Notes: generated from the letters alone by a model not told the origin. 64,000 bases of DNA from Anaerolineae bacterium (GCA_041082215.1 JBDOIF010000152.1:1235-65234); one strand, 5' to 3'. Counted from the first letter of the stretch, positions 14,120 to 48,913 are shown. Numbers and translations: made by a program.

Positions 14120-14400
14120 TGGCCGTGCACCCCCCTTCGAACCGCACTGCCCGGCTTGTCGTTGCCGTCCGGCTCCGGGCCGGCACCCCTGCGGCACCCG
14201 GGAGGGACTCTTTACCGTTGCTTCCTTCCGGACCTGGCGGGGTTCGGAGGCTCCCGCCGCGCAGGACCAGCCCCTCAACGCCTTCCGACACCGGCAGTCC
14301 CGTTCAGGCAAGCCCTCGGGGGGGAATTCGACCCCGCTATGGCGGATTGCGGGTACAGGGCACCGCCAGCTCCCCGTCTAGCACGGCCAGAGCTCATCTT
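14120..14400 (-). ncRNA. ffs: Signal recognition particle RNA, long (Bacillus-type) form with Alu domain
   Basis: The minus strand carries the domain-IV motif CAGGTCCGGAAGGAAGCAAC (complement of 14221..14240). The 5' part GGCCGTGCTAGACGGGGAGCTGGCGGTGCCCTGTACCCGCAATCCGCCATAGCGGGGTCGAATTCCC is near-identical in pattern to the B. subtilis scRNA Alu domain, and the 3' GAAGGGGGGTGCACGGCC matches the scRNA 3' end. Ends are approximate. Confidence 0.75.
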
Positions 14401-23903: not shown

Positions 23904-24905
23904 ATGAGGGCAATGCTTCTGCCCAGGCCCCGGCCAGCGGAGGAACGGCCGCTCGAGCTTGCCGACCTTCCCCTTCCCCAACCCGGCCCCGGCCAGGTCC
24001 GCATCCGGGTGCGGGCCTGCGGGGTCTGCCATACCGACCTCCACACGGTGGAAGGGGACCTCGCCCTGCCGAAGCTCCCCCTTGTCCCCGGCCACCAGAT
24101 CGTGGGGGTGGTGGAGGAAAGGGGAGAGGGGGCGGACCGGTTCGAGGTCGGGCAGCGGGTAGGGGTGCCCTGGCTCTACCATACCTGCGGCGCATGCGAG
24201 TTCTGCCGGCGGGGGCTGGAAAACCTCTGCACCGAGGCCCGCTTTACCGGCCTCCACGCCGACGGCGGCTACGCCGAGGCGATGGTGGCCCATCAGGACT
24301 TTGCCTATCCCCTCCCCGAAGGTTTCCCGGATGTGGCAGCGGCGCCTCTCCTCTGCGCGGGGATCATCGGCTACCGGGCGCTCAGGCTGAGCGGGGTGGA
24401 GCCAGGGCAGCGGCTGGGGATGTACGGCTTCGGCGGCTCGGCTCACATCACCATCCAGGTGGCCCGCCACTGGGGCTGCGAGGTCTACGTCTTCACCCGC
24501 AGCGAAAGCCACCGACGGCACGCCCTGGAGCTGGGGGCGGCCTGGGTGGGGGGCGCGGAAGAGGATCCCGGGGTCCGGCTGCACGGGAGCATCATTTTCG
24601 CTCCGGCAGGAAAGCTGGTGCCGGAGGCGCTTCGGGTGCTGGAGCGGGGCGGCACGCTGGCGCTGGCCGGAGTGACGATGACCCCCATCCCGGAGCTGGA
24701 TTACGACCGGCTGCTCTACTGGGAACGGTCGGTCAGAAGCGTGGCCAACTTCACCCGGCAGGATGCGGAAGAGCTGCTGGCGCTGGCCGCCGAGATCCCC
24801 ATCCGCACCACTGTGCAGACCTTTCCCCTGGAAGCGGCCAACGAGGCGCTGCTGGCCCTCAAGCGGAGCCAGATCGAAGGGACGGGGGTGCTGGTCATCG
24901 GATAG
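23904..24905 (+). CDS. Zinc-binding alcohol dehydrogenase (MDR family)
   Basis: GVCHTDLH zinc motif and Rossmann glycine motif GFGGSAH. Confidence 0.85.
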   Translation: MRAMLLPRPRPAEERPLELADLPLPQPGPGQVRIRVRACGVCHTDLHTVEGDLALPKLPLVPGHQIVGVVEERGEGADRFEVGQRVGVPWLYHTCGACEFCRRGLENLCTEARFTGLHADGGYAEAMVAHQDFAYPLPEGFPDVAAAPLLCAGIIGYRALRLSGVEPGQRLGMYGFGGSAHITIQVARHWGCEVYVFTRSESHRRHALELGAAWVGGAEEDPGVRLHGSIIFAPAGKLVPEALRVLERGGTLALAGVTMTPIPELDYDRLLYWERSVRSVANFTRQDAEELLALAAEIPIRTTVQTFPLEAANEALLALKRSQIEGTGVLVIG

Positions 24906-27900
24906 CGGCCGGCAACCGCGCCCGGAGCGGGGCCGGGAGGAGCGGCGCCAGCATTTCCCATTCCTGCGGGGTGATCGCCCGCAACCCAACCAGCGCCACC
25001 AGGTAGACCCCCAGCCCTGCCAGCCCTGCCAGCGGACGGTTCAGGAGAGCCACCCCTCCGGTCACCACACCCATCGCCAGCCCGGCCAGGGCCAGCCGCC
25101 CGATCGTCTGCCGCCAGCCCACCGGCCCCAACTGGCGGCGCAGGTCCAGGTAGAACAGCCCCGCCAGCAGCAGTTCTCCCCCCACGATGATCCACGCCGA
25201 GGCAATGTAGCTGAAAGCCGGCACGAAGAGGAGGTTTGCCACCACGGCGAAGACCACCCGCGCCCCTGAGGCCAGGAGGACGTACCGCTGGCGGTTGAGG
25301 GCGATCAGCACATAGTTGGTCAGGCTGTTGAGCCAGCCGAAGAGGATGGACCAGATCAGCAGCCGCAGCGCCGTCGCGCCATGGGGGAGGAACCGGCTGC
25401 CGCTGAGCAGCCCGACCAGCCCCGTCGCCGCCAGCGCGACCACCACCGCTACCGGCAACGCCACCGCCGTCAGCAGCTTGACGGAGAGCTGATAGGAGCG
25501 GCGGAGGCCGGCCCGGTCCTGGGCTGCCTGCTGGGACATCACCGGAAAGACGGCGAGGGTGAAGAAGGAGGGGATGATGTTCAGGGCGTCCACCCACTTG
25601 CGGGCGGCGTCATACCAGCCGACGGCGGCATCCCCCTGGAGGTTCTGGAGCAACAGCACGTTGACGCCCGGGAAGAGGGCCTGCAGCAGGATGGAGGCCA
25701 TCAGGGGCCAGCTCTCGGAGAGCATCAGCCGTTGCAGGGGCCAGGCCACCTGTTCGCGGGTGGGCGGAAGGCGGGACCAGACCAGCCGGTGGGCCAGTAC
25801 CGCCAGTACCGCCAGGGTCGCCAGGTTGGTCAGGACCGCCGCTCCGGCCAGCCCCACGATCCCCATCCCGGCCACCAGCACCAGCACCCCCAGCGTGACC
25901 CGCACCACCGTGGTCACCGTCTGGATGGCGGCGGGGATTTCGTGCTTTTCGAAGCCGCGAAAGAGGGCGGCAAACCCGTAGGCCACGCTCCCCGGCAGCA
26001 GGCCGACGTAGAGCAGCGCCGTCGCCCAGACCGTCTCCTCCGCCAGTGCCCCACCCAGCCCCTGCCATCCGGCCAGAAACCCCCCCAGCATGGGGGCCAC
26101 CGCGGCGTAGAGAAGTAGCCGGAGGACGGTGGTGTTGAGGAAAATCCTGCGCGCCTGATCCCGCTGACGGGCCACCTCCCGCATCATGTACATGTCCAGG
26201 CCGAAGTTGGCCAGCGTGTCAAACCAGAGGTAAATGTTGACCGCCGTCGCGTACTGGCCGTTCCCCACCGGTCCCAGGATGCGGGCCATCAGCGCGGCGA
26301 AGGCGAACTCGATGGCCCGGTTGAAGAGGTTGAGGACAATGGGGGCCAGAGAGTTCTTCGCCACCCGCCGGACGGTGCTGACCTCGTCCTCCTCCCGGTA
26401 AAAGAACCGCCAGAGGTAGAGGCCGACGAGGAAGAGCACCATCATCCCGGCGATGAAGGTGATGAAGGCGCCGACCTTCACGCTGTTGGGGCTGTATTTG
26501 AAGCGGACGGTCCAGGCCCCCGGCTCCAGGAATACTCCCCGGAAGTTCCCGTCCACCCGGGCCACTGCCACCTCCTGTTCTGCCTCTTCTCCCGCCCCCT
26601 GAGGCCGCACGAAGGCCCGCCAGCCGGGGAAGTAGGAGTCGGTCAGCACCAGCCAGCTCGGCTCGGAGACGCTGACATCAATAAAGACCTCGTTGAGGGT
26701 GTAGCTGGTGACTCGTTGCTGGTTGCTGATTGCTGGTTGCTCGCTGCCAGCAACCAGCGACCAGTGACCAGTTTCGAGTATTACGTAGCGGTGGGGGTCA
26801 TAGGTCCGCAGGGCCTGAGCGACGTCGTCGGCCACGACGGCGGCGGTGGCGGGGAGGGTAAAGGCGCGGGGGAGCGCCGAGAGGTTTTCGTACACTCGCA
26901 CCGCCTCGTCCTGATAGACCAACCGGTATTTGGCCGGGTTGGGGATTTCCACCTCGGTGACGATGTATTTGACGTTGAGCAGGTCGAGGAGGGGGCTATC
27001 GAGGCTGGACCACTGCCGGAGGGGGGCAATCCGATTGTACTGGAGCTGGTCCTGTGGCTCGATCAGCTCCATATAAGCGGCGTACTGCTGGGGAAAGATA
27101 GAGTCGTACCCATCCACTGCCTGGAGTCCGTAGAACATCCCCACATTGGCGTTCATTGTCTTGGTAGTGCCGGGCGGGGTGAAGGCGGCGTACCGCCAGA
27201 GGGAGCCGTCCTGCCGCAGGAACGCCACCACCGGCGGGGTGTAGTCCAGAAGCGCCGGGTCCACTGCCGGATGGAACCCCGCGCCGAAGGAGACCAGGTC
27301 CACCACCAGCACTGTCACGGCCAGGAACTCCCACACCGGCCGGCGGCGGAGGAAGATGGGGCAGCGGCTCACCCGCAGGGCGATGCCGGTGGCAGCAAGC
27401 AGCAGTCCGAAGAGGGCAACCCACCTGAACTCGTAGGAGTAGAAGGCCCGATGGTCGGGAAAGGCGCTGGAGGCCAGGGCCAGATTCCAGAAGGCCTGCT
27501 CCACCAGCGGCTCGATCTGTCCGAAGAAGGCCCGGCTGAGGACCAGCCCGACCAGGGTCACCACCCCTCCCCAGAAAGCCATCGCGGCCAGCAGGCTCAC
27601 CAGCGACGGAGCGGCGTCCAGGAGGAGAAACCTGCCCACTCCCCGCTTTCCCCCTCCTGTCCCCTCTTCCCTGCTTCGCCTCACCTCATCCACCCCGAAC
27701 CCTGCCAGCACCGCTACCGACAGGGTGAGGGGGAAGACCCAGCGGAAGGGAGAGTGGGACTGGTGGAGGTAGGGCAGGGCGTAGACGAGGGCGTAGAGGG
27801 GGGTTCCGAAGATGCAGCCGAAGGAGAAGAAGGCGAGAAGGGTAAAAAAGGCACCGATCGCAGGGCGCATAGCGCAGGGCAGCCTGCGGAATACGCAATA

Positions 27901-29124
27901 CGCCATACGGAATACAGCCACTGCGGCCAGGAAAAGCGGCAGAAGCCCCACATAGGCCCCACCCTCGACGTAGTTCTTGATCCCCCAGTCGTGGCTGAGG
28001 ATCGGCTCCCCGTGGGCGTTGACGGAGGCGGGGACCGTGCGCCACTGGAAAAGGTCAAAATAGCTGTGGTGAGCCGGGTTGCCGAAGAAATTGGGGATGG
28101 CGAAGGCGATAATGCGGCGCGGCGGGTATGCCCAGCCGAGCACCTGCTGGAGTGTCGGTGCCGCCTGTGCGCTGCGGAAGCCGGTGGTGGCCACCTCGTA
28201 GAGGGGGACGAACTGCACCGCCCCCAGCGCCAGCCCCAGCAGGACCATCAGGACCAGCCATGCCGCCGTTCTTAACCGCAAAGGGCACAAAGTCTTCTTT
28301 AAGGAAACCACGGAGGGAGCCCTGAAAACTCTGCGAAACTCTGTGTTCTCCGTGTCTCCGTGGTTAGAACCTGATGGAACTGCATAAGTCCTGCCAATCA
28401 ACCGCCAGACGGCGTAGGCTCCGGTCACCAGGAGCACGAAGTAGGTGTTCTCAGCGTGGCCCGCCAGCATCTGGCAGCCCAGCCCCATCCCTCCCAGGAG
28501 CACCCAGGGAAGGCTGGATGGGCGGCTACCCAGTGCCGGCCGCTGCTGGATCACCCGCTCCACCATCGCCAGGATGAAGGGAAGCCAGGAAGAGCCTGCG
28601 ATGATCATCGGGTGGACCACGGAGACCAGCATAAAACCGCTGAACTGGAAGGTGATCCCGGCGATGAGCCCCCCCAGCCGGCTGGCCCCCAGCGTACGGG
28701 CGAGGAGGTAAGCCCACCAGCCAGCCAGCCCCAGTTGGAGCCAGGTAAAGACCCCGTAGGCCCGCCACAGTGGGAGGACATAGAAGACAAGGCTCAGGGG
28801 GTAGAGGACCGAATGCTGCCCGTTGGCGAAGAAGGGATGGCCGGCGAAGACATAGGGGTCCCAGAGAGGCAGCTCCCGCGCCTGGATTGCTTCCACCAGA
28901 AGCCGCTTCCAGGCATAGTTTTCCAGGATCAGGTCGGCCAGCAGGTGGTTTTGGGGGACCCCCACTCCCAGCTCCTCTGCTGCTGCCCGATAGGGCTGGT
29001 GCAGAAAGAGAGCGTCGGCAGGGAGGAGGGTGCGGTCGTCCAGGACGACGGGGGCGAAGAGGATCAGCGGCAGAAAGAGGAGGATGGAGGCCGCAGCCAG
29101 GGTGGAAAGCCTGCAACGGATCAT
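24895..29124 (-). CDS. Giant fusion protein: N-terminal YfhO-family membrane glycosyltransferase-like domain (about 900 aa) fused to a C-terminal Wzx/MATE-like polysaccharide flippase domain (about 500 aa)
   Basis: The N-terminus ([12 protein letters not shown]...[22 protein letters not shown]...) is typical of YfhO. From [37 protein letters not shown] onward it is a canonical Wzx-family flippase. Start set at MIRCRL (29124), overlapping the upstream GT2 stop by 4 bp. Confidence 0.6.
26713..26775. repeat. Palindromic TTGCTGG-type heptamer array embedded in frame in the YfhO-Wzx CDS
   Basis: gttgctggttgctgattgctggttgctcg / ctgccagcaaccagcgaccagtgaccag are reverse complements of each other; translated as [14 protein letters not shown]. 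Confidence 0.55.
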
Positions 29125-29858
29125 GCGCCTGCCCGGAGGGACCGCAGGTGCCGGTGTCGCCAGCGGACCTCCCACACCCGCAGTGCCGCCTCGATCTTGA
29201 CCGGCATCGTCATCTTGGAGCGACCGATGCGCCGGTCCTCGAAGTAGATGGGGACTTCTAAGACGCGGTAGCCGAGCCGTTCGCAGACGTAGGCCATCTC
29301 CACCTGGAAGACGTAGCCCTGGGAGCGGATGGCACTCAGGTCAATGCCCTCCAGGGCCTCCCGCTTCCAGGCCTTGAATCCGGCGGTGATATCTCGCACC
29401 CGGCAGCCGAGGATGATGCGGGCGTAGAGGTTGGCCCACCAGGAAAGGATCACCCGCCCCAGGCCCCACTTCTCATCGGTGCGGCCCCCCTTTACATAGC
29501 GGGATCCCACCACGACATCGTATTGGGGGATATGGGCCAGGAGCCGGGGGACGTCGGAGGGAGCGTGGGAGAAGTCGCAGTCCATCTGCACGATTGCCTC
29601 CGCTCCGTGGGCCAGCGCCCACCGGAAGCCGTCCACATAGGCCCGTCCCAGCCCCCGTAGTCCGGTCCGATGGAGGACGTAGAGCCTGCCGGGGTTTTCC
29701 TCCGCCAGCCGGTCAGCGATCGCTCCGGTGCCGTCGGGCGATTCGTCGTCCACGATCAGGATGTCCAGGTCGGGGACCCCCAGCTCCCACAGCGCCCTTG
29801 CCATGGGGGTCACGTTTTCCGCCTCGTTATACGTTGGTATCACAACGGTTGTTTTCAT
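29121..29858 (-). CDS. GT2 polyprenyl-phosphate mannose/glucose synthase (Dpm1-like)
   Basis: [12 protein letters not shown]...[13 protein letters not shown]...QMDCDFSH are GT2 / DPM-synthase motifs. Confidence 0.8.
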
Positions 29859-29939
29859 CCGGGCCTTTCTTTCAAAGCAAAAGGGCGCGGCTGGGTGGAA
29901 GCAAGCCGCAGCCCGGCGTTTGGAGCAGACCGATGGGGG

Positions 29940-30806
29940 TTACGAGGAGGCCAGCGAACCCCGGATCGCCTCCCGCAACCCATTCAGGTCCGAAAAAGCC
30001 CCGGGGCCGGTGAGCGTGCCCAGCCGGACCGACAGATGGGGGAGGGGGGAACCATCCCGGCTGCGGCCGGTTTCCCAGTCAACGCGGGGGTAGAAGAAGA
30101 TCAGCGTTTCCCGCAGGCGGGTGCTCAGCCGTTCCCGCGCCCGCAGGACATTTTCGGGGTGGAGGGGGAGGAAGAACACCGTGTCGTCCAGGTGGCCGAC
30201 GAAGGCATCCACTCCCTCTTCCTCTCGGGCGATGCGCTGGATCATCAGTGCCACGGCGCGGAGTACGTCGTCGCGGGCCACGAAGCCGTAGACATCGGCA
30301 AACCTTTCCAGGCCATCCAGCGCCACAGTCACAACGGCCCAGGGGTCCTTTGTTGTCAGGAGCTCCCTGAGCCGTGCTTCGGCGAGGGCGGCGAAGGGAA
30401 TGCCGGTCACCGGGTGGGTGACCGGCTCTGTGCTGGCCCGCCGCAGGACGTTGCGGACCCGCAGCTTGAGTTCCTGGACGTCGAAGGGCTTGGTGATGTA
30501 GTCTACCGCTCCCAGCTCCAGCCCGGCCAGTCGGTCAATCCGCTCCCGCCTTTCGGTGAGGAAGATGATGGGGATATGGGCGGTCCGCCTGTGGCTGCGC
30601 AGTCGTCGGCAGATCTCGTAGCCGTCTATATCCGGCAGGCGGATGTCCAGCACGATCAGATCGGGTGGGTTCTTTTTTGCGAGGGCCAGAGCTTCGTTCC
30701 CCCAGCCTACAGCCGTGACCGCGTACCCCTGTGCCTCGAAGTACGAGGTCAGCATCTCGGCCGTGTTTGGCTCATCTTCGACAATTAGGATATGCCGCGG
30801 CTCCAT
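29940..30806 (-). CDS. Response regulator with C-terminal degenerate GGDEF-like domain
   Basis: REC domain (ILIVEDEPNTAEML...DLIVLDIRLPDIDG...DYITKPF); the C-terminal GGDEF fold carries GHLDD in place of GG(D/E)EF. Confidence 0.65.
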   Translation of the reverse strand: MEPRHILIVEDEPNTAEMLTSYFEAQGYAVTAVGWGNEALALAKKNPPDLIVLDIRLPDIDGYEICRRLRSHRRTAHIPIIFLTERRERIDRLAGLELGAVDYITKPFDVQELKLRVRNVLRRASTEPVTHPVTGIPFAALAEARLRELLTTKDPWAVVTVALDGLERFADVYGFVARDDVLRAVALMIQRIAREEEGVDAFVGHLDDTVFFLPLHPENVLRARERLSTRLRETLIFFYPRVDWETGRSRDGSPLPHLSVRLGTLTGPGAFSDLNGLREAIRGSLASS

Positions 30807-30827
30807 CGCCGCCCCCGATGGTCCTGA

Positions 30828-31460
30828 CTAGCCGATAGGTTCTTTATAAATCGCATAGGTGCAGACCTTGCCGCCGGCGGCTGCGCATTCGATCTCGTCT
30901 ATACGGAACTTTTTGCCGCCGCTGACCCAGTGAAGCCCTTCTTCGATGACCCCCATCCCGGCGAAACAGATGGGCCGGTCCGCATGGCGACCCCAGCAGA
31001 CCGGGCAGGGGTGCATTGTGTAGGTGTAGTATTCTCCCTTGTCCTCCACTTCGCTGACCTGGTCGCTGAACTGGGTGAAGATTTTGGCCAGCGCCGGTAG
31101 CCCGGCCTTCAATTTGGCGGGAAGGGGTAGCACTTTAAAGGCGAGGTCTCCCACACCAGCCAGAGGGCCAAACCCTGGCAGCCCCAGGGCGAAGGCTGCC
31201 CGACCGGCCCGCAACTGAAGCCCCCGCCCTCCGCGCGGGCCGTACATCTCCTCCAGCGCCCAGTTCAGGGCCGAAAAATCGGCAAAGTCGAATTCTTTGT
31301 CGAAGTTGTCCGGGGGATAATTGTCGATCAGATGGGAGAGGCCGGCCAGGTTGAGGATCGCGTTGAGGCCGTTTTTCCCCATCACCTCCTCGATGGCCTG
31401 GATGTAGATCCGGGCCAGCTTGTTGGGGTAGAAGTAACCGCTGGGCTCGATCCGTCTCAC
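30828..31460 (-). CDS. V4R (4-vinyl reductase) domain protein
   Basis: C-terminal HPCPVCWG...CFAGMGVIEEGLHW Cys motif and overall V4R-like sequence. Confidence 0.5.
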   Translation of the reverse strand: MRRIEPSGYFYPNKLARIYIQAIEEVMGKNGLNAILNLAGLSHLIDNYPPDNFDKEFDFADFSALNWALEEMYGPRGGRGLQLRAGRAAFALGLPGFGPLAGVGDLAFKVLPLPAKLKAGLPALAKIFTQFSDQVSEVEDKGEYYTYTMHPCPVCWGRHADRPICFAGMGVIEEGLHWVSGGKKFRIDEIECAAAGGKVCTYAIYKEPIG

Positions 31461-31484
31461 GTCTAGCCTCCTGTGCCGCCTCTG

Positions 31485-31874
31485 CTACAAAATATCTGCC
31501 AGCTCTTCGGCCGCGCGACGCATCTCCAGGAAAACCAGCCCCAGCTTGGCGCCTGCCCGGGCCAGGACGGTCAGGACGGCCTCTTCACCGACTGCGGTCA
31601 GGATGACATAGCCGCCCTCACCCTTCACGTACACCTCGTCCAGCGTCCCCCGGCCCAGCTCGCTGGCGATCCGTTCGCCCAGCGAGAGCATCGCCGCAGA
31701 CATCGCCGAGACCCGGTCCTCCTCCACCCCCGCCGGCAGGGATGAAGCCATCGTCAGCCCGTCTACACTCACCACAGCGGAGGCCTCGATGTCGGGGGTG
31801 CTCATCTGGAGTTCACGCAGGCGTTCTACCAGCCGCTCGGTGCGGGACCTTTCTACCATTCCGTGCTCCTTCAA
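31485..31874 (-). CDS. Roadblock/LC7 (MglB-like) domain protein
   Basis: ASAVVSVDGLTMASSL...GGYVILTAVGEEAVLTVLA is a typical Roadblock/LC7 fold signature. Confidence 0.65.
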   Translation of the reverse strand: MKEHGMVERSRTERLVERLRELQMSTPDIEASAVVSVDGLTMASSLPAGVEEDRVSAMSAAMLSLGERIASELGRGTLDEVYVKGEGGYVILTAVGEEAVLTVLARAGAKLGLVFLEMRRAAEELADIL

Positions 31875-32029
31875 GGTGGGGTTGCCCTTCCAATAAACTT
31901 CCCACTGCCGGAGCTCCCGGCGGGAGGAATAACGAAATAAAGGTTACCATAGGTAGCGAAGCTTGTCAAGTTCTCTTGTTTGAAGGTCGGACGTGAGTTC
32001 AGACACAAACGCTCATCGGCCGCTTCTGA

Positions 32030-32110
32030 CCTCACCCCATCCCCCTCACCCCACCCCCTGGCTCCCTGCCGCGCGGGAGAGGGGAGGGGGTAGGGGGAAG
32101 GGTGAGGGTC
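32030..32110. repeat. About 80-nt C-rich / G-rich imperfect hairpin (G-quadruplex-capable arm)
   Basis: gacctcaccccatccccctcaccccaccccctggctccctgccgcgcgggagaggggagggggtagggggaagggtgagggtc; the arms are reverse complements, and the G-arm has four or more G3-5 runs. Downstream of comEA. Confidence 0.5.
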
Positions 32111-32153
32111 GCTTTCCCACCATGTCCGAAGCCCGGCTCCTGAAAGCAACCGC

Positions 32154-32765
32154 TCAGTCCACCGTGATCCGACCCCGGATCTCCTCGAAGACCGCCGGGC
32201 CAATGCCAGGGACCTCCATCAGCTCTTCCACGCTCTTGAAGGGGCCGTATGTCTCCCGGTATTCGACGATCCGCTGGGCTGTGGAAGGGCCGATGTGGGG
32301 GAGCATTTCCAGCTCCTCAACGGTGGCGATGTTGATGTTTACTATCCCCCCGCTGGCGGAAGCAACCCCGCCGGAAAGAACAGGGATAGGGGGCTCCTCC
32401 CCCACGCGCGGCACGTAGACCTGTTGCTGGTCTCTCAGCTCCTGCGCCAGGTTGATGCGCTCGAGATCGGCTTCGGGCGCCGGACCCCCGGCTGCGCGCA
32501 CGGCGTCTTCCACCAGGCTGCCGGGGGGAAGACGGTAGACCGCGGGCTGCTGCACCGCCCCACAGACGTAAACTCGCAGAGGGAGGGGGGTGGGAGTGGG
32601 GAGGGGGGTGGCCGTGGGGTCAGGGGTGCTGACCTCGATGGGAGGGGCCTGGGGATGGGGGGTGAAGAAGCCCAGCAGGCCGCCTGCGATCAGGCTCAGC
32701 ACAGAGCAGAGGACCAGAAGGCTGCGGTGACGCGCGACGCCGCTCCCCAAATCCGTGTTTTCCAT
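32154..32765 (-). CDS. comEA: ComEA-like DNA-binding protein (tandem helix-hairpin-helix)
   Basis: N-terminal TM; C-terminal VNINIATVEELEMLPHIGPSTAQRIVEYRETYGPFKSVEELMEVPGIGPAVFEEI has HhH motifs. Confidence 0.75.
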   Translation of the reverse strand: MENTDLGSGVARHRSLLVLCSVLSLIAGGLLGFFTPHPQAPPIEVSTPDPTATPLPTPTPLPLRVYVCGAVQQPAVYRLPPGSLVEDAVRAAGGPAPEADLERINLAQELRDQQQVYVPRVGEEPPIPVLSGGVASASGGIVNINIATVEELEMLPHIGPSTAQRIVEYRETYGPFKSVEELMEVPGIGPAVFEEIRGRITVD

Positions 32766-32898
32766 GTGCTTTTCTCCGTTGTAAGCTGCGTTTGTGCCTG
32801 ATTATACTCCGGGAGGCAAAAGAGACAAGTCCACCTTCTCCCCTTGTCCACTCCTCCCTTTCATGCTACAATCTTCCAGGCCTGGGAGTGCGGAAAGC

Positions 32899-33795
32899 AT
32901 GCTCGATGTGGGGATTGTGATCGTTAACTACAACACGCGCGACCTGTTGCGCACCTGCCTGCAAACCGTCTATGCCAGCCGGGGGCAGCTCTCCTTCGAG
33001 GTATGTGTGGTGGACAACGGCTCCGCCGACGGCAGCGCCGATATGGTCGCAGCCGAGTTCCACCAGGTCCGCCTGATCGCCAACGCCGACAACCACGGCT
33101 ACCCGGCAGCCAACAACCAGGGGTTACGGGCCTTCGGCTACCCCGACGGGGCCGACGCTCCCCGTTTCGCCCTGCTCCTGAACCCCGACACCGAGCTTCC
33201 GGAAGACGCGCTGACAGAGATGCTGGCCTTTATGACAGCGAGGCCCGACGCTGGCGTGGCTGGCCCCAAACTGGTCCGGCCGGACGGCTCGCTGGACCTG
33301 GCCTGTCGTCGTTCCTTCCCGTCCCCTGCTGTCTCCTTTTACCGGCTTGTCGGCCTTTCCCGCCTCTTCCCCCGCAGCCGCCGCTTCGGCCGCTATAACC
33401 TGACCTACCTCGACCCCGACCAGACGGCCGAGGTGGACGCCGTCGTGGGGGCCTTCATGCTCGTCCGCCGGGAGGCGATCCGGGACGCCGGGCTGCTGGA
33501 TGAGACTTTTTTTATGTATGGGGAGGACCTGGACTGGTGTTACCGCATCAAAGCGGCAGGGTGGAAGGTGTACTATAACCCGGCCGTCACGGTCCTCCAC
33601 GTGAAACGGGCGTCCAGCCAGCACAGCCCCCGCGCGCGGGTGGAGTTCTGGCGGGCGATGGAGCTTTTCTATACCAAGCACTATGCTTCCCATACCCCCC
33701 GTCCCCTCCACACGCTCATCCTCGGCACCCTGCGCGCGCGGACCGATCTGGAGCGGCTGAGGCAGAAGCTCACGGCCGGGCCGGAGGTGGTTTGA
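32899..33795 (+). CDS. Family-2 glycosyltransferase
   Basis: VIVNYNTRDLL...VVDNGSADGS...NHGYPAANN motifs; start at MLDVGIV is uncertain (an alternative ATG lies at 32863). Confidence 0.75.
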   Translation: MLDVGIVIVNYNTRDLLRTCLQTVYASRGQLSFEVCVVDNGSADGSADMVAAEFHQVRLIANADNHGYPAANNQGLRAFGYPDGADAPRFALLLNPDTELPEDALTEMLAFMTARPDAGVAGPKLVRPDGSLDLACRRSFPSPAVSFYRLVGLSRLFPRSRRFGRYNLTYLDPDQTAEVDAVVGAFMLVRREAIRDAGLLDETFFMYGEDLDWCYRIKAAGWKVYYNPAVTVLHVKRASSQHSPRARVEFWRAMELFYTKHYASHTPRPLHTLILGTLRARTDLERLRQKLTAGPEVV

Positions 33796-35219
33796 TGAGA
33801 GCCTTGATGAAAAAGCAAAGGGCTCACATCTTTTTTGTCGTTACCCTCGCCTTCACCGACGTGGTGATGAGTGGTGCGGCCTTCTACGCCGCCTACTGGC
33901 TGCGCCGCTATCTCCCTCTGCCAACCCCGGCCATTGATATGGGCCGGCCCGCCCGGTACATCCTGCTAATGTTCACCCATGTCCTCTCCGTCCTTATCGT
34001 GCTCCTCTACAGCCGTATGTACCGGCTGGTCCGAAGCCCTTCCCGGGTGGACGAGTTCTACCAGATTTTCGGCGCGGGGACGGTGGGGACGGTGACCGGC
34101 GTCGCTCTATCGTACCTCTTTTTCAAGAACACCCCGCTTGAGGTGGATTACCCGCGGGGGATGATCGGATATACCTGGCTGCTGACCATCGCCCTGATCA
34201 CGGTGGGACGGCTGGCCCACGGCCGACTCCGCGCCGCCCTCCAGGCCCGGGGCTGGGGGCGGGACCGGGTGCTGGTGGTCGGCACCGGGGATGTCGCCCG
34301 GATGATCCTTCAGAAGATCCTGGGCAACCCCTCTCTGGGCTACGAGGTGGTGGGCGCGGTGGCGGTCAACGGCCATCCGGAGGCTGCCCTGCCTGCTCCC
34401 ATCCTCGGCCACGCTGGCAACCTGGCCGAGATGATCGAACAGCACCAGGTGGACGAGGTGATCATCGCCCTGCCAGAGGCCTCCCATCAGGACATCCTGC
34501 TGCTGATCTCGGAATGCGAGCGGGGTAAGGCGACCATCAAGGTGTTCCCTGACCTCTTCCAGATTATGGCCGGTCAGATGAGCATCGGCGATCTGGGAGG
34601 ACTCCCCCTGCTGACCGTGCGGGACATCGCCCTGCGGGGCTGGCGGCGGGCAGCCAAACGGGCTATGGACATCGTTGGAGCCACCGTCGGGCTGGTCCTT
34701 CTCTCCCCGCTGATGCTCTTAACCGCTATTCTGATCAAGCTGGACTCCCCCGGCCCGGTCTTCTACGTCCAGGAGCGGATGGGGCTGGATGCCCGTCCCT
34801 TTCCCATGTTGAAGTTCCGCTCGATGCGTCAGGACGCGGAACGGACAGGACCGGGGTGGACCCGCCCCAACGACCCCCGTGTTACCCGGCTGGGTAGCTT
34901 CCTGCGCCGCCTCAACGTGGATGAGCTGCCCCAGTTGATCAATGTGCTGCTGGGTGAGATGAGCCTGGTCGGGCCGCGGCCGGAGCGCCCTGTTTATGTC
35001 TCCCAGTTCCGCCGCTCCATCCCCCGCTACATGGAGCGCCACCGGGAAAAGGCGGGGATGACGGGCTGGGCCCAGATCAACGGGCTGCGTGGCGATACCT
35101 CCATCGCCGAACGGACAAAATACGACCTCTGGTATATCGAGAACTGGTCGCTCCTCCTGGATATCAAGATCCTCATCCGCACCCTTTTCAACGTCTTTCG
35201 TGCCCCCAACGCCTACTGA
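33792..35219 (+). CDS. Polyprenyl-phosphate glycosyl-1-phosphate transferase (bacterial sugar transferase, WcaJ/PssY-like)
   Basis: N-terminal TM block and a C-terminal bacterial sugar transferase domain ([11 protein letters not shown]...[16 protein letters not shown]...[16 protein letters not shown]). Confidence 0.85.
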
Positions 35220-35294
35220 TTGGCTCCCGGCCCGTTCCGATTTGGTCAATCGCACGGGAGTGTGGTATACTCAGAAGAGCAGAGAGGGCGGGGT

Positions 35295-35996
35295 ATGGAC
35301 GAGATCCGGATCATCATTGTGGACGATCACCCCTTTTTCCGCGAGGGGCTGCGGAATGTGCTCGCCTCCGAACAGGACATCCGGGTTGTGGGCGAGGCAG
35401 GAGACGGAGAGGAGGCCGTGGAAAAGGCTGCCGAGCTCCAGCCCGACGTCATCCTGATGGACGTCAATCTGCCCCGGATGAACGGACTGGAGGCGATGCG
35501 GCGCATTAAAGAAGCCCGCCCCGAAACCAACTTCGTCATCCTCACCGCCTACGACGACGAGGAGCAGGTCTACCACGCCGTGCGGGCCGGCGCCTCCGCC
35601 TACCACGCCAAAGATGTGGACCCCAGGAGGCTCGTGACGACGATCCGGGAGGTCAACGCTGGCCGATATGTGGTGGGCGGTGCGACGCTGACGGAGACGG
35701 AGATCGGCCAGTGGCTCCTGGAAAAGTTCCGCCTCTTCGGCGGGGAGATGTTCGAAGAAGGCCGCTACCTCTCCCCCCTGTCGGCGCGGGAGATGGAGAT
35801 CCTCCGCATGGTTGTGGCCGGGATGAGCAACAAGGAAATCGCCTACCGCCTGGGCATCAGCCATCAGACAGTGAAGAACCACATCACGGCCATCCTGAAC
35901 AAGCTCGGCGTGGCCGACCGGACCCAGGCCGCTGTCTATGCGCTCCGCCGGGGCTGGGTGCCGCTCCGGTCGGCCTCCGGGGGGGAGTCCTCGTAG
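35295..35996 (+). CDS. NarL/FixJ-family response regulator (REC + LuxR HTH)
   Basis: IIVDDHPFFREGL...VILMDVNLPRMNG; C-terminal LSAREMEILRMVVAGMSNKEIAYRLGISHQTVKNH. Confidence 0.85.
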   Translation: MDEIRIIIVDDHPFFREGLRNVLASEQDIRVVGEAGDGEEAVEKAAELQPDVILMDVNLPRMNGLEAMRRIKEARPETNFVILTAYDDEEQVYHAVRAGASAYHAKDVDPRRLVTTIREVNAGRYVVGGATLTETEIGQWLLEKFRLFGGEMFEEGRYLSPLSAREMEILRMVVAGMSNKEIAYRLGISHQTVKNHITAILNKLGVADRTQAAVYALRRGWVPLRSASGGESS

Positions 35997-36006
35997 GGGG
36001 GCAACT

Positions 36007-37056
36007 ATGGTCGTGCAGGGTCAGTCCGATTCCTCGTTCCAGCAGTTCGTGGAAGAGTGCCGCAAAGAGTACGAGCAGATCCAGACCGAGCTGAAGGAGG
36101 TGGACCTGCTGATCCAGCAGACGGTGGGAGAGGTGGATCGGCTCTCCCAGCGCAGTGCCCAGGTTGCCAACCGGCTGCGGCAGGTCGAATCGCTCTTCGA
36201 CACCATCCCCCGGGAGGACATCCGTGAGGCATATACCGCTGTGCTGGAGACCCAGCAGCGCCTCTTCACGATGCGCGGCCAGCTGGAGAAGCTCCAGTCC
36301 GACCAGCGGAATATGGATCGGCTGGCCCGCCTCCTGCGGCGTGTCCTGGAGTTTTCCCAGGTGGACGTATCTTTACAGGGCCAGGTAGCAGAGGAGGAGG
36401 AAGGGGAAACCATGCCCCTGGTCATCCGCATCATCGAGGCCCAGGAGCGGGAACGAAAGGACATGGCCCGTCAGATCCACGACGGGCCTGCCCAGGCCCT
36501 GACCAACCTGGTCCTCCAGGCAGAGATCTGCGAGCGGCTATTTGATTCCAACCCCGAAAGAGCACGGGCGGAGCTGGCCAACCTGAAGACGGCAGTAGCC
36601 GCCACGTTCCAGAAGGTCCGTGGCTTCATCAGCGACCTGCGGCCCATGATGCTGGACGACCTGGGGCTGGTGCCCACTCTGAAGCGACACATCGAGGGGT
36701 TCAATGAGACCAACGAGATGCAGGTTAGCCTCCTGGTCACTGGCCGGGATAGAAGGTTTGCCCCTTACAAGGAAGTGACCGCCTTCCGCGTGATCCAGAC
36801 ACTGCTCATCAACGCCCGCGACCTCTCCCACGCCTCCAACGTTCAGGTCTCCCTCGACGTGGGGGAGAACTCCCTCCACGCGGCCGTAGAGGATGACGGC
36901 AGCGGGTTCGAGATGGAAGAGCTGGCCAGCGGGCCGATCGCCGAGCAGATGGGCCTGCGGGCGTTGCGGGAACGGGTGGAGATGGTGGGGGGGGAGTTCT
37001 GGGTGGAAAGCAGCCCCGGTCGGGGCACCAGGGTCAGCTTTGACATCCCCCTGTGA
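36007..37056 (+). CDS. Sensor histidine kinase, HisKA_3 (NarX/DegS-type), probably cytoplasmic
   Basis: H-box ERERKDMARQIHDGPAQALTNL and an HATPase region with ...DDGSGF...; no clear TM segment, a coiled N-terminus. Confidence 0.8.
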   Translation: MVVQGQSDSSFQQFVEECRKEYEQIQTELKEVDLLIQQTVGEVDRLSQRSAQVANRLRQVESLFDTIPREDIREAYTAVLETQQRLFTMRGQLEKLQSDQRNMDRLARLLRRVLEFSQVDVSLQGQVAEEEEGETMPLVIRIIEAQERERKDMARQIHDGPAQALTNLVLQAEICERLFDSNPERARAELANLKTAVAATFQKVRGFISDLRPMMLDDLGLVPTLKRHIEGFNETNEMQVSLLVTGRDRRFAPYKEVTAFRVIQTLLINARDLSHASNVQVSLDVGENSLHAAVEDDGSGFEMEELASGPIAEQMGLRALRERVEMVGGEFWVESSPGRGTRVSFDIPL

Positions 37057-45513: not shown

Positions 45514-47193
45514 TCACGCATCCAGACTCTTGAGAAAATCATTCGCTGCTTTTGCCAGTAATCGCGCTCTTTCCTTGAGAAACTGCTCGTAGTGCTCAAT
45601 GCTCCATTGCCCTTCTAACTGGGCCTTATTTCCAACAGCTTGCGCAAATGAATCGGGGATCAAGTGCTCAAGAAGTAACTGTTCGGAAATGTTGAATTGG
45701 GCCAGGTATTTTGCAGGTGGTTTTCCAGACAACCGGTTCACGTTTGTGCTTTCGTTCAGTACCGTGATGTTTGCCAGAGCATGAATCCGGTCATCAGGGA
45801 CACCGGCACTTCTCAGCACGCTGCGAGGATAAACGTGGTGCCACTGGGGTTCAAACCCACTCACGATTAAAGCACCTGTCCTATCATAGCCAATACGGGT
45901 TTGGTCTACCCAATCCCGCGCTTCTCGGTGAAACACCACCAGATAAAGCATCAGACGCAAGAAACGGCTACCAGCGCAGTCATACCGGCTCAGAAACTCT
46001 TCGGGGGTAATTTCGGAAGGCGCGTGTAAGCGCCCGTATAGGTTCTTTAAAGCCTGATCAAAGTCCTGCGCTTCAGTAATTGCGCGCACGTCCTCGTTCA
46101 AACTGGTAATCGCTGAACCGCTGTAACGGCCATCCCAGTTTGCCAGAAGAAACCAGCGAACAGCCTTGCTAAATCGGTAATTTTTCGTATCTTTCCAGCG
46201 GTGATGTAGCACGAAGAGAGGGATCAGACTGTTAACCGAGGGGAGCAACTTTACTGACATAATCCCGACCTCGGCCAGCCGTTTTCGAACTTCCACGATT
46301 ACTTCTCTGGTTTGTTGCCAAACAACGCTCAGGTTTTGAGGATTCCAAAAGTCTTTAGGGACTTCCTTCAGTCGGGCTCGCCCTTTACCAATGCCAGTCA
46401 TTGTGCGGACGAAGATGCCGGCATCCAGTCCCCATCCTATATCCTCCAACTCGCCGCAAAAGGGAAGATATTCCTCTCGCACCCAGCCTGGATTCCGTAC
46501 AGCGGCCAGCGCCAGAACAACATCGGCTTCCTTCACTCGCGTCCCTTCTTGATTCAACCGAGCGAAAATCTCGGCCACGTCTTCCACTTCATGGTTGATC
46601 CGAATTATGGGAATATCTCGCTCACGGATTTGCCACAAGCGCTGTAAGCGAGCATGGACTTTTGCAAACAGGTCCATCATCTGGGCAGGCTCAGGCTGAA
46701 TGGATGCCACAATCTCTTGAGCCAGTAGAGTTAGTGTCTCAACGTTCTCTGTGCTCAGTACACGGCGCAGGCTAATCCAGTGTGGATCGCGGCGACGGAT
46801 AGGGTTCGGCAGAGCAAACTCCAGATGGTCTTCGTCAGGGAGAAGATTTACCATCACATCATACCGCTCCAGGGCCCTGTTCCATTCCTGTGCGCTATCC
46901 CACCAGTATGGCTTTTGCCCTAAAAGCAGGCAAAGAGCAACCGTCCGTTGTTGCCCATCTACAATCCAAAGCGAAGCCTGCGTACCCTGGGCCGTTTTGG
47001 ACTCCTGGTACGAATACGAAGAGGAGTCCCAGAGCAAAAACGAACCGATCGGATAATCGCGATAGAGTGACTCCGCCAGTTTCTTGACCTGCTCCGGATC
47101 CCAAACGAATTCTCGCTGAAATTCAGGAATATCCACGCTCTTGTTGACCGCCTGTTTGACAATCTCCCGAACTTTCTGTTGCTCAAGTGCCAT
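45514..47193 (-). CDS. GmrSD-family type IV restriction endonuclease (DUF262 ParB-like + DUF1524 HNH-like)
   Basis: DUF262 N-terminus (IPEFQREFVW...DGQQR) and DUF1524 C-terminus (His/Asn motifs); markedly AT-richer than its surroundings. Confidence 0.75.
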   Translation of the reverse strand: MALEQQKVREIVKQAVNKSVDIPEFQREFVWDPEQVKKLAESLYRDYPIGSFLLWDSSSYSYQESKTAQGTQASLWIVDGQQRTVALCLLLGQKPYWWDSAQEWNRALERYDVMVNLLPDEDHLEFALPNPIRRRDPHWISLRRVLSTENVETLTLLAQEIVASIQPEPAQMMDLFAKVHARLQRLWQIRERDIPIIRINHEVEDVAEIFARLNQEGTRVKEADVVLALAAVRNPGWVREEYLPFCGELEDIGWGLDAGIFVRTMTGIGKGRARLKEVPKDFWNPQNLSVVWQQTREVIVEVRKRLAEVGIMSVKLLPSVNSLIPLFVLHHRWKDTKNYRFSKAVRWFLLANWDGRYSGSAITSLNEDVRAITEAQDFDQALKNLYGRLHAPSEITPEEFLSRYDCAGSRFLRLMLYLVVFHREARDWVDQTRIGYDRTGALIVSGFEPQWHHVYPRSVLRSAGVPDDRIHALANITVLNESTNVNRLSGKPPAKYLAQFNISEQLLLEHLIPDSFAQAVGNKAQLEGQWSIEHYEQFLKERARLLAKAANDFLKSLDA

Positions 47194-47233
47194 AGATGTT
47201 TCTCCTTCCGTAAGTTGGCATCCAGCAGAAGCC

Positions 47234-47428
47234 TCATTCCTGCTCCGTTCGCCACGCCAGAATCTGGTGCTGAAGTTCCACAGAGGTATAGCGAGAACCC
47301 AGGTCCCTTAAGGCACCGGCCCATTCAAACCCTGGATGAGCCCGGACCTTCTTTTCACGCTTTGCCAGCAGAAACTCAATAAAATCCCGCACTTCCTGCC
47401 GGATGTCCGCAGGAAGCATCCGATGCAT
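47234..47428 (-). CDS. DUF2281-like small protein (antitoxin-like)
   Basis: 64 aa with QEVRDFIEFLLAKREKK, the DUF2281 pattern. Confidence 0.45.
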   Translation of the reverse strand: MHRMLPADIRQEVRDFIEFLLAKREKKVRAHPGFEWAGALRDLGSRYTSVELQHQILAWRTEQE

Positions 47429-47447
47429 TATCTCACCTCCGCTATCT

Positions 47448-47520
47448 GCCCCTCCGCCAGCGTCAGCGACAGCGGCGGGGCGGCGAAGAGGTCGGCGCCG
47501 GGTGCGTAGCCCAACAAATC
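47448..47520. repeat. 73-bp direct repeat, copy A (about 88% identical to 48104..48176)
   Basis: cccctccgccagcgtcagcgacagcggcggggcggcg...cccaacaa; the first 38 nt are identical to copy B. Confidence 0.8.
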
Positions 47521-47523
47521 GGC

Positions 47524-47772
47524 CTATGCTGGAGAGAGAGCGACTTCCAGGGTTCTCATCCGGCGGTCAACCTCCTCCAGCATATCCTGAATCGCTCTGA
47601 TCGCCTCCTCGTCAAAAAGCACTTCTCCGCACTGGTCACATACCCAGGCCGGGACAGCATCCACAATGAGATGATACCCCTTGCGCGTGACCGTATAACT
47701 GACCGGTTTTCGGACCAGCGTCCCTTTACAATAGAAGCATTCCATGACAATCACCTCTTTCGGGTGCGCCAA
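47524..47772 (-). CDS. YgiT-type (MqsA-like) zinc-finger antitoxin
   Basis: MECFYCKG...VCDQCGEVLFDEEA is the YgiT-type zinc-finger motif. Confidence 0.7.
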   Translation of the reverse strand: MAHPKEVIVMECFYCKGTLVRKPVSYTVTRKGYHLIVDAVPAWVCDQCGEVLFDEEAIRAIQDMLEEVDRRMRTLEVALSPA

Positions 47773-48083
47773 TCAGGTTCCCAGTAGTCCTCGCTGGGCA
47801 GGTAAGCAGTGATGATTGCCAGATAATCCTTCTTCGGCGCACAGACTACGTGCACCGGACGACCCATATGCCCCCAACCCAGCATCAGGCAACTATGCCC
47901 CCGGGCATCCTCCGGATAGTCTTCTATCACTTCGCCGTAGAGAACCACCGCGCGAACTTCATCCGGAGAAATCATCCGGTCAGGAGCATTCATCTGATGT
48001 AAGGCGTGCGGCAGGTAAAGAATCCGCTTCGCAGCAGCTTCTCTAACCTTCTCCAGAATGCTCCTATGGCTCTCGGGTCTCAT
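47751..48083 (-). CDS. DUF4258-family toxin-like protein
   Basis: MRPESHRSILEKVREAAAKRILYLPHALHQMNAPDRMISPDEV...; its ATG (48083..48081) overlaps the TGA of the upstream fdhB-like gene by 1 nt. Confidence 0.6.
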   Translation of the reverse strand: MRPESHRSILEKVREAAAKRILYLPHALHQMNAPDRMISPDEVRAVVLYGEVIEDYPEDARGHSCLMLGWGHMGRPVHVVCAPKKDYLAIITAYLPSEDYWEPDWRTRKR

Positions 48084-48913
48084 CACTCCATACCTACCAT
48101 CGGCCCCTCCGCCAGCGTCAGCGACAGCGGCGGGGCGGCGGCGAGGTCCGCTCCTGGCTCGTACCCCAACAACTCCCCCACATCGCGCCGGATCAGGTCG
48201 TAGAGGACGGTCAGCGGGATGTGGGCCGGGCAGGTCAGTTCGCACTGGCGGCAGCCGACGCAGCGGGCCGCCATGTGCATGGCCCGGATAAGGTGGAAGG
48301 ACGGGAAGGGCGGGGCCAGCACCCCCGGCTCCACCCAGAGCGGGTCCTCCAGCGCGCAGGCCTCGCAGAAGCACTCCGGGCAGATGTTGCGGCAGCCGTA
48401 GCACTTGATGCATTTGGCGAACTGCTCCCGCCAGAAGGCCCAGCGCTCCGCCCAATCCATACTCTCGTACCGGGCGATGATGGGGTTGGGCGAGCCAGCG
48501 AGAGCTGGCGTCCCCAGCGCCACGGCTTGAGGCCAGCCCTCCGTCTTCGGGAAGGGGGCATCGCAGTGGCACGCCTCCGCCTCCTCCGCGGTGCAGGCCA
48601 CCCCCAGGATGTACAGGCGCTCGGGGTCTATCTGATTCCGCTTGGCCATCTCCACCAGCGCGCGCAGATCGCAGGCACGGGCGACAATGCCGAAGCGGGC
48701 CTGCGGGTAGCGCTTCTGGAGCAGGGAGACGACGGACGCCAGAGGGTAGCGAGGGGAGAGAACCAGTTCGGAGAGGTCATCTCCCTGGCGGAAGAGATAC
48801 GGCGCGGTGCCCACAGCCGTCCGCCGCAGGCCGACAACGCCGTCCAGTTCAGGAAGTTTCTCCGCCACGTGGGCGCGCAGGGTGTCCAAAAGGTCGTTAT
48901 CGGTCATCGGCAA
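48083..48913 (-). CDS. FrhB/FdhB-family iron-sulfur protein (putative formate dehydrogenase beta / electron-transfer subunit)
   Basis: An FrhB_FdhB-like core (FGIVARACDLRALVEMAKRNQIDPERLYILGVAC) and two C-terminal Cys clusters (CIKCYGCRNICPECFCEAC; CVGCRQCELTCP). Its last ~25 codons are encoded by repeat copy B. Confidence 0.5.
   Translation of the reverse strand: MPMTDNDLLDTLRAHVAEKLPELDGVVGLRRTAVGTAPYLFRQGDDLSELVLSPRYPLASVVSLLQKRYPQARFGIVARACDLRALVEMAKRNQIDPERLYILGVACTAEEAEACHCDAPFPKTEGWPQAVALGTPALAGSPNPIIARYESMDWAERWAFWREQFAKCIKCYGCRNICPECFCEACALEDPLWVEPGVLAPPFPSFHLIRAMHMAARCVGCRQCELTCPAHIPLTVLYDLIRRDVGELLGYEPGADLAAAPPLSLTLAEGPMVGME
48104..48176. repeat. 73-bp direct repeat, copy B, forming the 3' end of the fdhB-like gene
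   Basis: See copy A; together they bracket the YgiT/DUF4258 cassette. Confidence 0.8.

Follow-up and report, generated by a model that had tools for sequence, protein, structure and literature searches.

What might a Roadblock protein, a V4R protein and a response regulator control together when neither a GTPase nor a kinase is encoded beside them? The question is raised by a stretch of 64,000 nucleotides from an Anaerolineae bacterium (GCA_041082215.1 JBDOIF010000152.1:1235-65234), hereafter the window, in which positions are counted from the first letter. A listing of its open reading frames (ORFs) places three co-oriented genes on the minus strand at 29940-31874, coding in order for the Roadblock protein, the V4R protein and the response regulator; all operon features given below lie on this strand. 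The initial annotation had proposed such a three-gene module, and both its existence and its domain calls are borne out. The parts all come from known families. Their combination is not described in any paper found in full-text literature searches, in keeping with the earlier description of the module as uncharacterised. Our answer is that the triad is most likely a switch for envelope glycosylation and not a sensor of cyclic di-GMP (c-di-GMP). In the fuller and more tentative form developed below, for which our confidence falls a little short of even, the triad would be the regulatory front end of a conserved operon, its products forming a ligand- and phosphorylation-controlled complex that regulates lipid-linked sugar synthesis.

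Conservation of the triad in related genomes had been set beforehand as the test by which the idea of a module should stand or fall, and the module survives it. A scan of one genome per species yielded at least 532 loci with a relative, and the best 80 were analysed; the locus counts that follow are all among these 80, with flanks of 8 kb used in the search for GTPases. The 80 loci derive without exception from Chloroflexota metagenome-assembled genomes (MAGs) or isolates named Anaerolineae, Thermoflexia/Thermoflexales, Aggregatilineales and the like, among them the cultured Anaerolinea thermolimosa. In 51 of the 80 species-level genomes Roadblock, V4R and regulator genes follow one another as they do here, separated by median gaps of about 25 bp, an arrangement that is far beyond chance; the corresponding gaps in the window are 24 and 21 bp. 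The Roadblock protein (70-91% identity among orthologues) and the V4R protein (64-92% among the 80 genomes) are far better conserved than the regulator (44-69%). The remaining arrangements include V4R and regulator without Roadblock (6 loci), Roadblock-V4R followed directly by a glycosyltransferase gene without the regulator (3-4 loci, three of them clear-cut and one at a contig end) and V4R on its own (15 loci). A metagenome scan with the V4R protein as single query returned four short loci only.

The triad is commonly followed by a gene for a family-2 glycosyltransferase (GT2), which is present in 41 of the 51 triad loci, and in 21 loci triad and GT2 are followed in turn by a gene for a YfhO/flippase fusion protein. 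The latter is found after GT2 in 31 of the 80 genomes altogether, those with the full triad included, and also in a distant locus (L092). Median intergenic gaps along the operon are 25, 26 and 68 bp; in the window GT2 lies 81 bp past the regulator gene, while in A. thermolimosa (L080) there is a 4-bp overlap between the regulator gene and GT2. The GT2 of the window (29121..29858; 245 aa; PF00535, E 3.5e-27) is a Dpm1-like polyprenyl-phosphate glycosyltransferase consisting of the catalytic domain only. Its residues 1-229 match residues 23-244 of the 374-residue dolichol-phosphate mannose synthase of Pyrococcus (PDB code 5mlz; E 3e-29), the C-terminal membrane domain of which is missing, and it has no membrane segment of its own. 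Human DPM1 and mycobacterial Ppm1 are likewise catalytic domains only and rely on partner proteins; the absence of a membrane domain makes it plausible that the GT2 of the operon requires protein partners too.

The gene after GT2 (24895..29175; 1,426 aa as the longest ORF) codes for a membrane protein in which a YfhO (GT-C) part, scoring 48.1 bits against a cutoff of 28.5, is joined to a Wzx-like Polysacc_synt flippase (residues 939-1264; E 3e-30). Its true start probably lies downstream of 29175, and alignments to homologues begin at residues 1-48 of the longest ORF. GtrB/GtrA/GtrC and CsbB/YfhO are three-component systems of extracytoplasmic glycosylation. The operon resembles such Dpm1/GtrB-type systems in the presence of a synthase, a flippase and YfhO, and differs from GtrB/GtrA/GtrC in that the flippase is of the Wzx-like Polysacc_synt type and fused to YfhO, with no separate GtrA. 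GT2 and the fusion protein are thus predicted to supply between them the three activities of extracytoplasmic glycosylation, namely synthase, flippase and GT-C transferase.

The link from V4R, usually accompanied by Roadblock, to GT2 is the most persistent in the operon, as it outlives the loss of either the regulator or Roadblock. The Roadblock-V4R-GT2 arrangement without a regulator is seen in L031, L053, L085, L088 and L090, the V4R proteins of L088 and L090 being distant relatives with 48-55% identity, and in L092 V4R (48% identity), GT2 and YfhO/flippase stand alone. The neighbours upstream of the triad, by contrast with those downstream, vary between genomes, and clustering of all flanking ORFs of the 80 loci revealed no recurrent family besides the five genes of the operon and no kinase or GTPase among them.

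Several points weigh against the control of GT2 by the triad. Shared transcription alone is no proof of regulation, and the promoter assignment upstream of the Roadblock gene is itself weak: the candidate operon promoter (31941..31969), read from the sequence, combines TTGACA (31969-31964), a 17-nt spacer and TAACCT (31946-31941), but the -10 hexamer matches the consensus at 3 of 6 positions, weak evidence and the reason why the candidate fell below the threshold of the consensus scan and was not listed by it. The sugar specificity of GT2 is not fixed, the nearest NCBIfam families (AglJ, dolichyl-phosphate hexose transferase and PpgS) all matching far below their cutoffs. Eight triad loci with adequate flanking sequence, mostly from Aggregatilineales, carry no GT2, and the 15 genomes with a solo V4R have no GT2 nearby. 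These eight loci would suit a triad engaged in general cytoplasmic signalling with its target elsewhere, for which adjacency to GT2 would be merely inherited gene order. Since the 80 loci all belong to one class, gene order may indeed persist by shared ancestry, and the wider neighbourhood in the window is rich in envelope-polysaccharide genes anyway: a further GT2 (32794-33795) and a Bac_transf polyprenyl-phosphate sugar phosphotransferase (33792-35219) lie on the plus strand, diverging from comEA. Such a relay, independent of glycosylation, would leave it harder to account for the persistence of the V4R-GT2 link at 48-55% V4R identity and in spite of the loss of regulator or Roadblock, for the lack of conservation upstream, and for the overlap of regulator and GT2 genes in A. 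thermolimosa, and we regard it as unlikely.

If the triad does govern GT2, is the signal c-di-GMP, as the presence of a GGDEF-type domain had suggested? The response regulator (29940..30806; 288 aa) is predicted to join a receiver to a catalytically dead domain of GGDEF fold. The receiver (REC) domain, residues 6-117 (30456..30791; PF00072, E 1e-30), finds its nearest profiles among the OmpR/PhoB-type receivers, and its phosphorylation pocket is intact, with E10, D11, the phospho-acceptor D54 (codon 30645-30647), T84 and K106 invariant in all 32 sequences compared. A DNA-binding domain is absent. The remainder of the protein, from about residue 130 to residue 288 (29943..30419), was identified by fold match and by a profile of the domain, the GGDEF family of Pfam being matched over residues 143-197 at 20.8 bits, short of its cutoff of 23.8. 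This sub-threshold call is confirmed at the level of the predicted structure. The AlphaFold model (predicted local distance difference test, pLDDT, 86.5) has PleD, WspR and DgcR as its top full-length structural matches, with a template modelling (TM) score of 0.59 over 290 columns for 6zxm_A; the domain profile finds diguanylate cyclases exclusively among PDB matches with E < 0.1; and full-length comparison of the regulator with paralogues scoring above the Pfam GGDEF cutoff gives 40-41% identity. The protein therefore has the two-domain architecture and the predicted fold of PleD, WspR and DgcR, and is already annotated by JGI as belonging to the PleD family.

In PleD-type cyclases an Asp binds the metal, while an Asn and an Asp bind guanine. 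The start motif HPxTGLP and the YGFVA.DD helix align with DxLTGL and GHxxGD of these enzymes, so that the fate of each site can be read. The metal-binding Asp is replaced at position 162 by Gly, Ala or Ser (the first two accounting for 25 of 32 sequences), the guanine-binding Asn at position 170 by Ala, Ser or Gly, and the His of the GH motif by an invariant Phe (F175), while the Asp of the GD pair is retained as D179/D180. At the GG(D/E)EF position itself stands D207-D208-T209-V210-F211 (30174..30188), according to alignments with cyclases and paralogues: gapless BLASTP alignments set DDTVF opposite IGHAGGDNF and IGHIGGDDF of paralogues, and HMMER sets it opposite GGEEF of a solved cyclase. 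The initial annotation was thus right that the catalytic motif has been lost, but its placing of the former site at GHLDD does not hold. Of the 32 sequences, 26 have Asp at position 207 and 29 have it at position 208, and positions 209-210 are variable. In place of the lost sites the family has conserved motifs of its own, YGFVARDD (173-180), VG[HQ]LDDxxF (203-211) and FFYPRxDW (237-244), and the invariant residues are Y173-G-F-V, R178-D179-D180, G204, R230, E233 and F238-Y239-P240-x-x-D243. This combination of lost cyclase sites and private invariant motifs would suit a pseudo-enzyme that presents a new binding surface.

Degenerate GGDEF domains can still serve as receptors. PelD, YdaK and PssE are c-di-GMP receptors of this kind, encoded in polysaccharide operons and acting through a retained RxxD I-site (PopA is a further I-site receptor), and the initial annotation had suggested that the window protein likewise senses c-di-GMP through its I-site. 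The likeness is that an inactive GGDEF-fold domain is encoded beside a family-2 glycosyltransferase, as for several degenerate-GGDEF receptors, and the regulator could in this way relay the c-di-GMP level to its partners or to GT2; other genes of c-di-GMP type do occur in Anaerolineae, for example that for a large sensor in L080 which appears HD-GYP-like on reading of the ORF translation. The I-site, however, is gone. The positions equivalent to RxxD (198-201) read GVDA in the window and fall where the domain varies most, and among 32 relatives only six have any RxxD within residues 186-206, none of them at the canonical 5-residue spacing; the window protein has no RxxD there at all. Nor was a c-di-GMP or any other riboswitch found in the region by Rfam. 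The regulator further departs from PelD, YdaK and PssE in its phosphorylatable receiver and in its Roadblock and V4R partners. Being catalytically dead and devoid of an I-site, it should neither make c-di-GMP nor bind it at that site, and feedback inhibition by c-di-GMP is not expected either; we consider an I-site receptor very improbable.

A signal may instead be received by the V4R protein (30828..31460; 210 aa), predicted from PF02830, a structural model and a fold search to be a stand-alone ligand-binding protein of V4R/H-NOX fold. PF02830 reaches 29.1 bits against a cutoff of 31, over residues 147-202 only, and a precomputed match to the same family is present in close relatives. A profile built from orthologues retrieved nothing meaningful from the PDB, but a deeper profile of 70 family sequences matched the V4R protein MJ1460 (E 4e-4) and the phenol sensors MopR/PoxR (E 0.02-0.06). 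The model (pLDDT 96; predicted TM score, pTM, 0.91) forms a single fold spanning all 210 residues, for which Foldseek returned Nostoc H-NOX (TM ~0.63), the H-NOX domain of the soluble guanylate cyclase beta subunit (TM ~0.6), MopR/PoxR and TRAPPC3, the last including the palmitate-bound structure 6aq3 and ranking below H-NOX and about level with MopR/PoxR. Model fold and 70-sequence profile together support the sub-threshold assignment. The V4R, H-NOX and TRAPPC3 folds are related, a relationship treated also in PMC5847659, and hydrophobic-ligand cavities have been described for them (PMC10933270).

The Cys motif noticed in the initial annotation proved to be a hallmark of the family. None of C152, C155, C165, C192 and C200 falls below 90% occurrence among the 70 aligned members, and E189 is invariant among orthologues; these residues, between 152 and 200 (30861..31007), make up a predicted zinc site and an additional CPVC pair. 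In the profile alignment C165, E189, C192 and C200 coincide with C155, E178, C181 and C189 of MopR, which we take to be the zinc ligands of that protein. The window protein accordingly keeps the zinc-ligand positions of MopR. It differs from the MopR/PoxR/DmpR sensor domains in the CPVC pair (C152, C155), specific to its own family, in lacking fusion to an AAA+ transcription activator, and in a Pfam score just below the cutoff. With stand-alone H-NOX proteins, which control partner kinases (PMC4436077), it shares small size, a fold match over the whole protein and a position beside a two-component/GGDEF-type partner. In the 70-sequence alignment no His column reaches 90% conservation, leaving no candidate heme ligand, so that the protein has the H-NOX fold yet is not a heme H-NOX.

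The wider family, with 1,190 clusters at 50% identity (E <= 1e-3), offers a clue to the role of the module. In a representative library the 200-residue V4R module is fused to TIR, Ser/Thr-kinase-TIR, CHAT-FHA, PP2C (SpoIIE) and DUF433 domains (P0251, P0273, P0301, P0257, P0384, P0362 and P0363), and such fusions to effector domains suggest that it lends a sensor to a range of effectors, some of them defence-like. An alternative role is that of a lipid carrier: V4R could hold a polyprenyl-phosphate lipid or a lipid-linked sugar for GT2, much as TRAPPC3 holds its palmitate within a hydrophobic channel, with Roadblock and regulator as accessories. The resemblance of the model to TRAPPC3 with covalent palmitate (6aq3) and to phenol-binding MopR/PoxR would agree with this, as would the cavities for hydrophobic ligands known in the fold (PMC10933270) and the position of V4R as the member most closely tied to a GT2 that has no membrane segment. 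The fusions to TIR, kinase, CHAT and PP2C domains are better suited to a sensor, however, and the solo V4R genes do not lie near a GT2. These latter, in L047-L049, L057, L059, L062, L065, L068, L072, L074, L076-L079 and L082, code for proteins 66-69% identical to the window V4R, have none of the operon partners nearby and, in the two that were read (L048 and L059), show a replacement of C200. The carrier role is therefore decidedly unlikely in our judgement, and sensing remains the preferred function of V4R.

The first gene of the triad is that of the Roadblock/LC7 protein (PF03259; E 4e-20, 71.8 bits against a cutoff of 23). Its longest ORF, 31485-31874, begins with TTG at 31874 and would encode 129 aa. 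The ATG at 31859 is probably the better start, since AAGGAG lies 6 nt upstream and the resulting 124-aa product is on record in NCBI/Logan; the gene would then occupy 31485..31859, an end at 31874 being 15 bp too far. Roadblock proteins are typical regulators of GTPases, as MglB is of MglA in Myxococcus, and the window protein shares the Roadblock/LC7 fold family with MglB and MglC. Its closest solved relatives are 7f8m (E 3e-31), CvnB5 (3leq; E 3e-10) and Rv3364c. MglB, by comparison, is matched in the PDB at E 0.007 only, a marginal likeness, and the NCBIfam MglB equivalog scores 23 bits against a cutoff of 200. The greater proximity to CvnB5 and Rv3364c recalls the actinobacterial conservon, in which Roadblock is also tied to two-component signalling (PMC4316618), but the locus contains no CvnA-type kinase, CvnC (DUF742) or CvnD GTPase and has V4R and the REC-GGDEF-like protein instead. 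The features that define an active cyclase, an I-site receptor, an MglA/MglB pair, a conservon and a heme H-NOX are each missing from this locus.

The earlier observation that no GTPase or kinase accompanies the triad was upheld both by the clustering of flanking ORFs and by tblastn, in which neither a small GTPase nor a PatA_N protein as query found anything in the 64-kb window or within 8 kb of the 80 loci. The arrangement hence differs from the MglB/MglC-MglA-RomR system, in which a GTPase takes part and where the response regulator RomR carries its own C-terminal region in place of the pseudo-cyclase domain. A GTPase does belong to a second conserved cluster, which contains genes for PatA_N, a small Ras/Arf-like GTPase, an alpha/beta hydrolase, a V4R relative (V4R'), an LbH protein, in some cases a dehydrogenase, a REC-GGDEF relative (regulator') and a giant GAF histidine kinase. 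It was found in L089, L091 and L093-L098, on at least six independent contigs, including an NCBI MAG named Thermoflexia (coordinates: L089, 3783-10060; L091, 4640-9952; L097, 5218-14587; L098, 4013-13382), and no paper describing it was found. A JGI label of the LbH protein as a sugar nucleotidyltransferase was not relied on, Pfam supporting hexapeptide repeats only. V4R relatives within the cluster are 44-52% identical to the window V4R; V4R' reaches 52%, and regulator', which keeps GGD(D/E/N)F, is 40% identical to the window regulator. The presence of paralogues of both genes indicates that the V4R-regulator pair was duplicated as one unit, which argues that the two proteins act jointly.

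The two clusters are complementary: Roadblock is missing where the GTPase and the kinase are encoded, and both of these are missing where Roadblock is. Could they be halves of one system? Roadblock would then be the partner of the second cluster's GTPase in trans, as a GTPase-activating protein (GAP) or guanine nucleotide exchange factor (GEF), and the triad would supply one part of a polarity or localisation system divided between the two clusters; both regulators would be phosphorylated by the GAF kinase, and the glycosylation genes would be a downstream target or mere neighbours, so that the proposal is compatible with the regulation of GT2. Besides the paralogy of V4R' and regulator' in a conserved cluster and the usual association of Roadblocks with GTPases, it can draw on the strong conservation of the GTPase itself, which is 81-88% identical among the best 120 of more than 8,000 matches, the named ones being Anaerolineae, Chloroflexota or Thermoflexia, and on the occurrence of PATAN proteins among the known neighbours of MglA/MglB homologues (PMC4316618). 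The proposal presumes, however, that both clusters are present in one genome, and it has to contend with the lack of a GTPase within 8 kb of the 80 loci or in the window and with the slight similarity to MglB. A missing GTPase is moreover commonplace: in a 2014 survey 328 of 749 MglB homologues (44%) were uncoupled from an MglA, and none of these orphans had been characterised (PMC4316618). On balance we hold a partnership in trans to be unlikely.

A bolder extension starts from the TRAPP complexes of eukaryotes and Asgard archaea, in which Bet3/TRAPPC3 stands alongside longin-type subunits, much as a protein of V4R/TRAPPC3 fold is paired with a Roadblock-type protein here. Roadblock and V4R might form a bacterial hetero-complex akin to the longin/Roadblock-plus-Bet3 platforms of TRAPP and Ragulator, with the phosphorylatable pseudo-cyclase regulator as client in place of a Ras-like GTPase, and possibly with the paralogous GTPase in trans as well, gating lipid-linked sugar synthesis at the membrane. 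The TRAPPC3/V4R and Roadblock folds have been discussed as ancestors of GTPase-regulating platforms (PMC10933270). The resemblance is one of parts only, and the operon has no GTPase; we think the idea quite unlikely. If true, it would establish prokaryotic Roadblock and V4R as a pair working as one regulatory platform and would give a first function to an 'orphan' MglB-family protein.

How, on our preferred reading, would the triad regulate lipid-linked sugar synthesis? The analysis establishes how the locus is built, that both the catalytic site and the I-site are lost, which folds are predicted, and how far the genes and their linkage are conserved; each interaction in the scheme that follows, like its ligand, its kinase and its effect on the enzyme, is inferred. 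V4R would sense a small hydrophobic or redox-active ligand, and Roadblock, as a dimer, would act as adaptor. D54 would be phosphorylated by a histidine kinase encoded elsewhere, upon which the receiver may dimerise and pair two pseudo-cyclase domains into a binding platform. The assembled complex would bind or release the anchorless GT2 and thereby set the supply of polyprenyl-phosphate sugar, which the YfhO-type enzyme would transfer to an envelope acceptor outside the membrane. Output would be by protein-protein contact throughout, with c-di-GMP neither made nor sensed and with no DNA binding. Each kind of contact invoked here has a precedent: RomR, a response regulator, is bound directly by a Roadblock protein, MglC, within the RomR/MglC/MglB complex (PMC10329633), H-NOX sensors act on partner kinases (PMC4436077), and in archaea receivers are fused to V4R-like (MetOD1) and Roadblock-like (NitrOD3) domains (PMC5847659). 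As to the kinase, a GAF-PAS histidine kinase gene lies divergently upstream in four loci only, among them L035, L038 and L040, in which the Roadblock gene is missing and the kinase gene diverges from V4R-regulator-GT2-YfhO; in these lineages it could be the cognate kinase.

Within the window itself, the hybrid kinase at 378-1772 and a DegS/DegU-like pair at 35220-37056 were considered as local partners and rejected, neither being conserved with the triad. The pair, on the plus strand, comprises a NarL-type regulator (35220-35996) and a HisKA_3 kinase (35938-37056), and none of the genes at 32794-37056, the envelope-polysaccharide genes included, is conserved with the triad in other genomes. 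Upstream of the candidate promoter, between the comEA stop and the Roadblock gene, a strong hairpin with one C-rich and one G-rich arm occupies 32027-32111 of the minus strand (predicted RNA folding energy -69 kcal/mol; z -3.8 relative to shuffled sequences), separating the operon from comEA. Possibly it serves as the terminator of comEA or belongs to a repeat. At permissive settings Rfam returned for 29700-32900 nothing but spurious microRNA-type matches, which fall on this hairpin. Control of the operon by a riboswitch or other RNA element was rejected, as the scan of the window at gathering thresholds returned a single family, the bacterial large signal recognition particle (SRP) RNA (14123-14386, minus strand, 172 bits); no tRNA genes were found in the window. 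Elsewhere, a stretch of low GC content (45514-48572; 0.54 compared with about 0.64) carries genes for a GmrSD_N-type restriction endonuclease and a DUF4258 protein and was probably acquired as a small defence or toxin islet.

What the locus offers is a set of experiments, yet no new principle. Conservation of the operon across the class gives a testable function to an 'orphan' Roadblock protein of the MglB family. The regulator represents a subfamily of receiver-GGDEF proteins that have neither the catalytic nor the I-site and yet have conserved new motifs, and which are prone to misannotation as PleD-like. The paired duplication of V4R and regulator into the cluster with GTPase, PATAN protein and GAF kinase provides a natural comparison through which the contribution of each component may be judged. 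Finally, the operon ties cytoplasmic signalling proteins to envelope glycosylation of the Dpm1-like/YfhO type in the Chloroflexota, a phylum whose envelopes are poorly understood.

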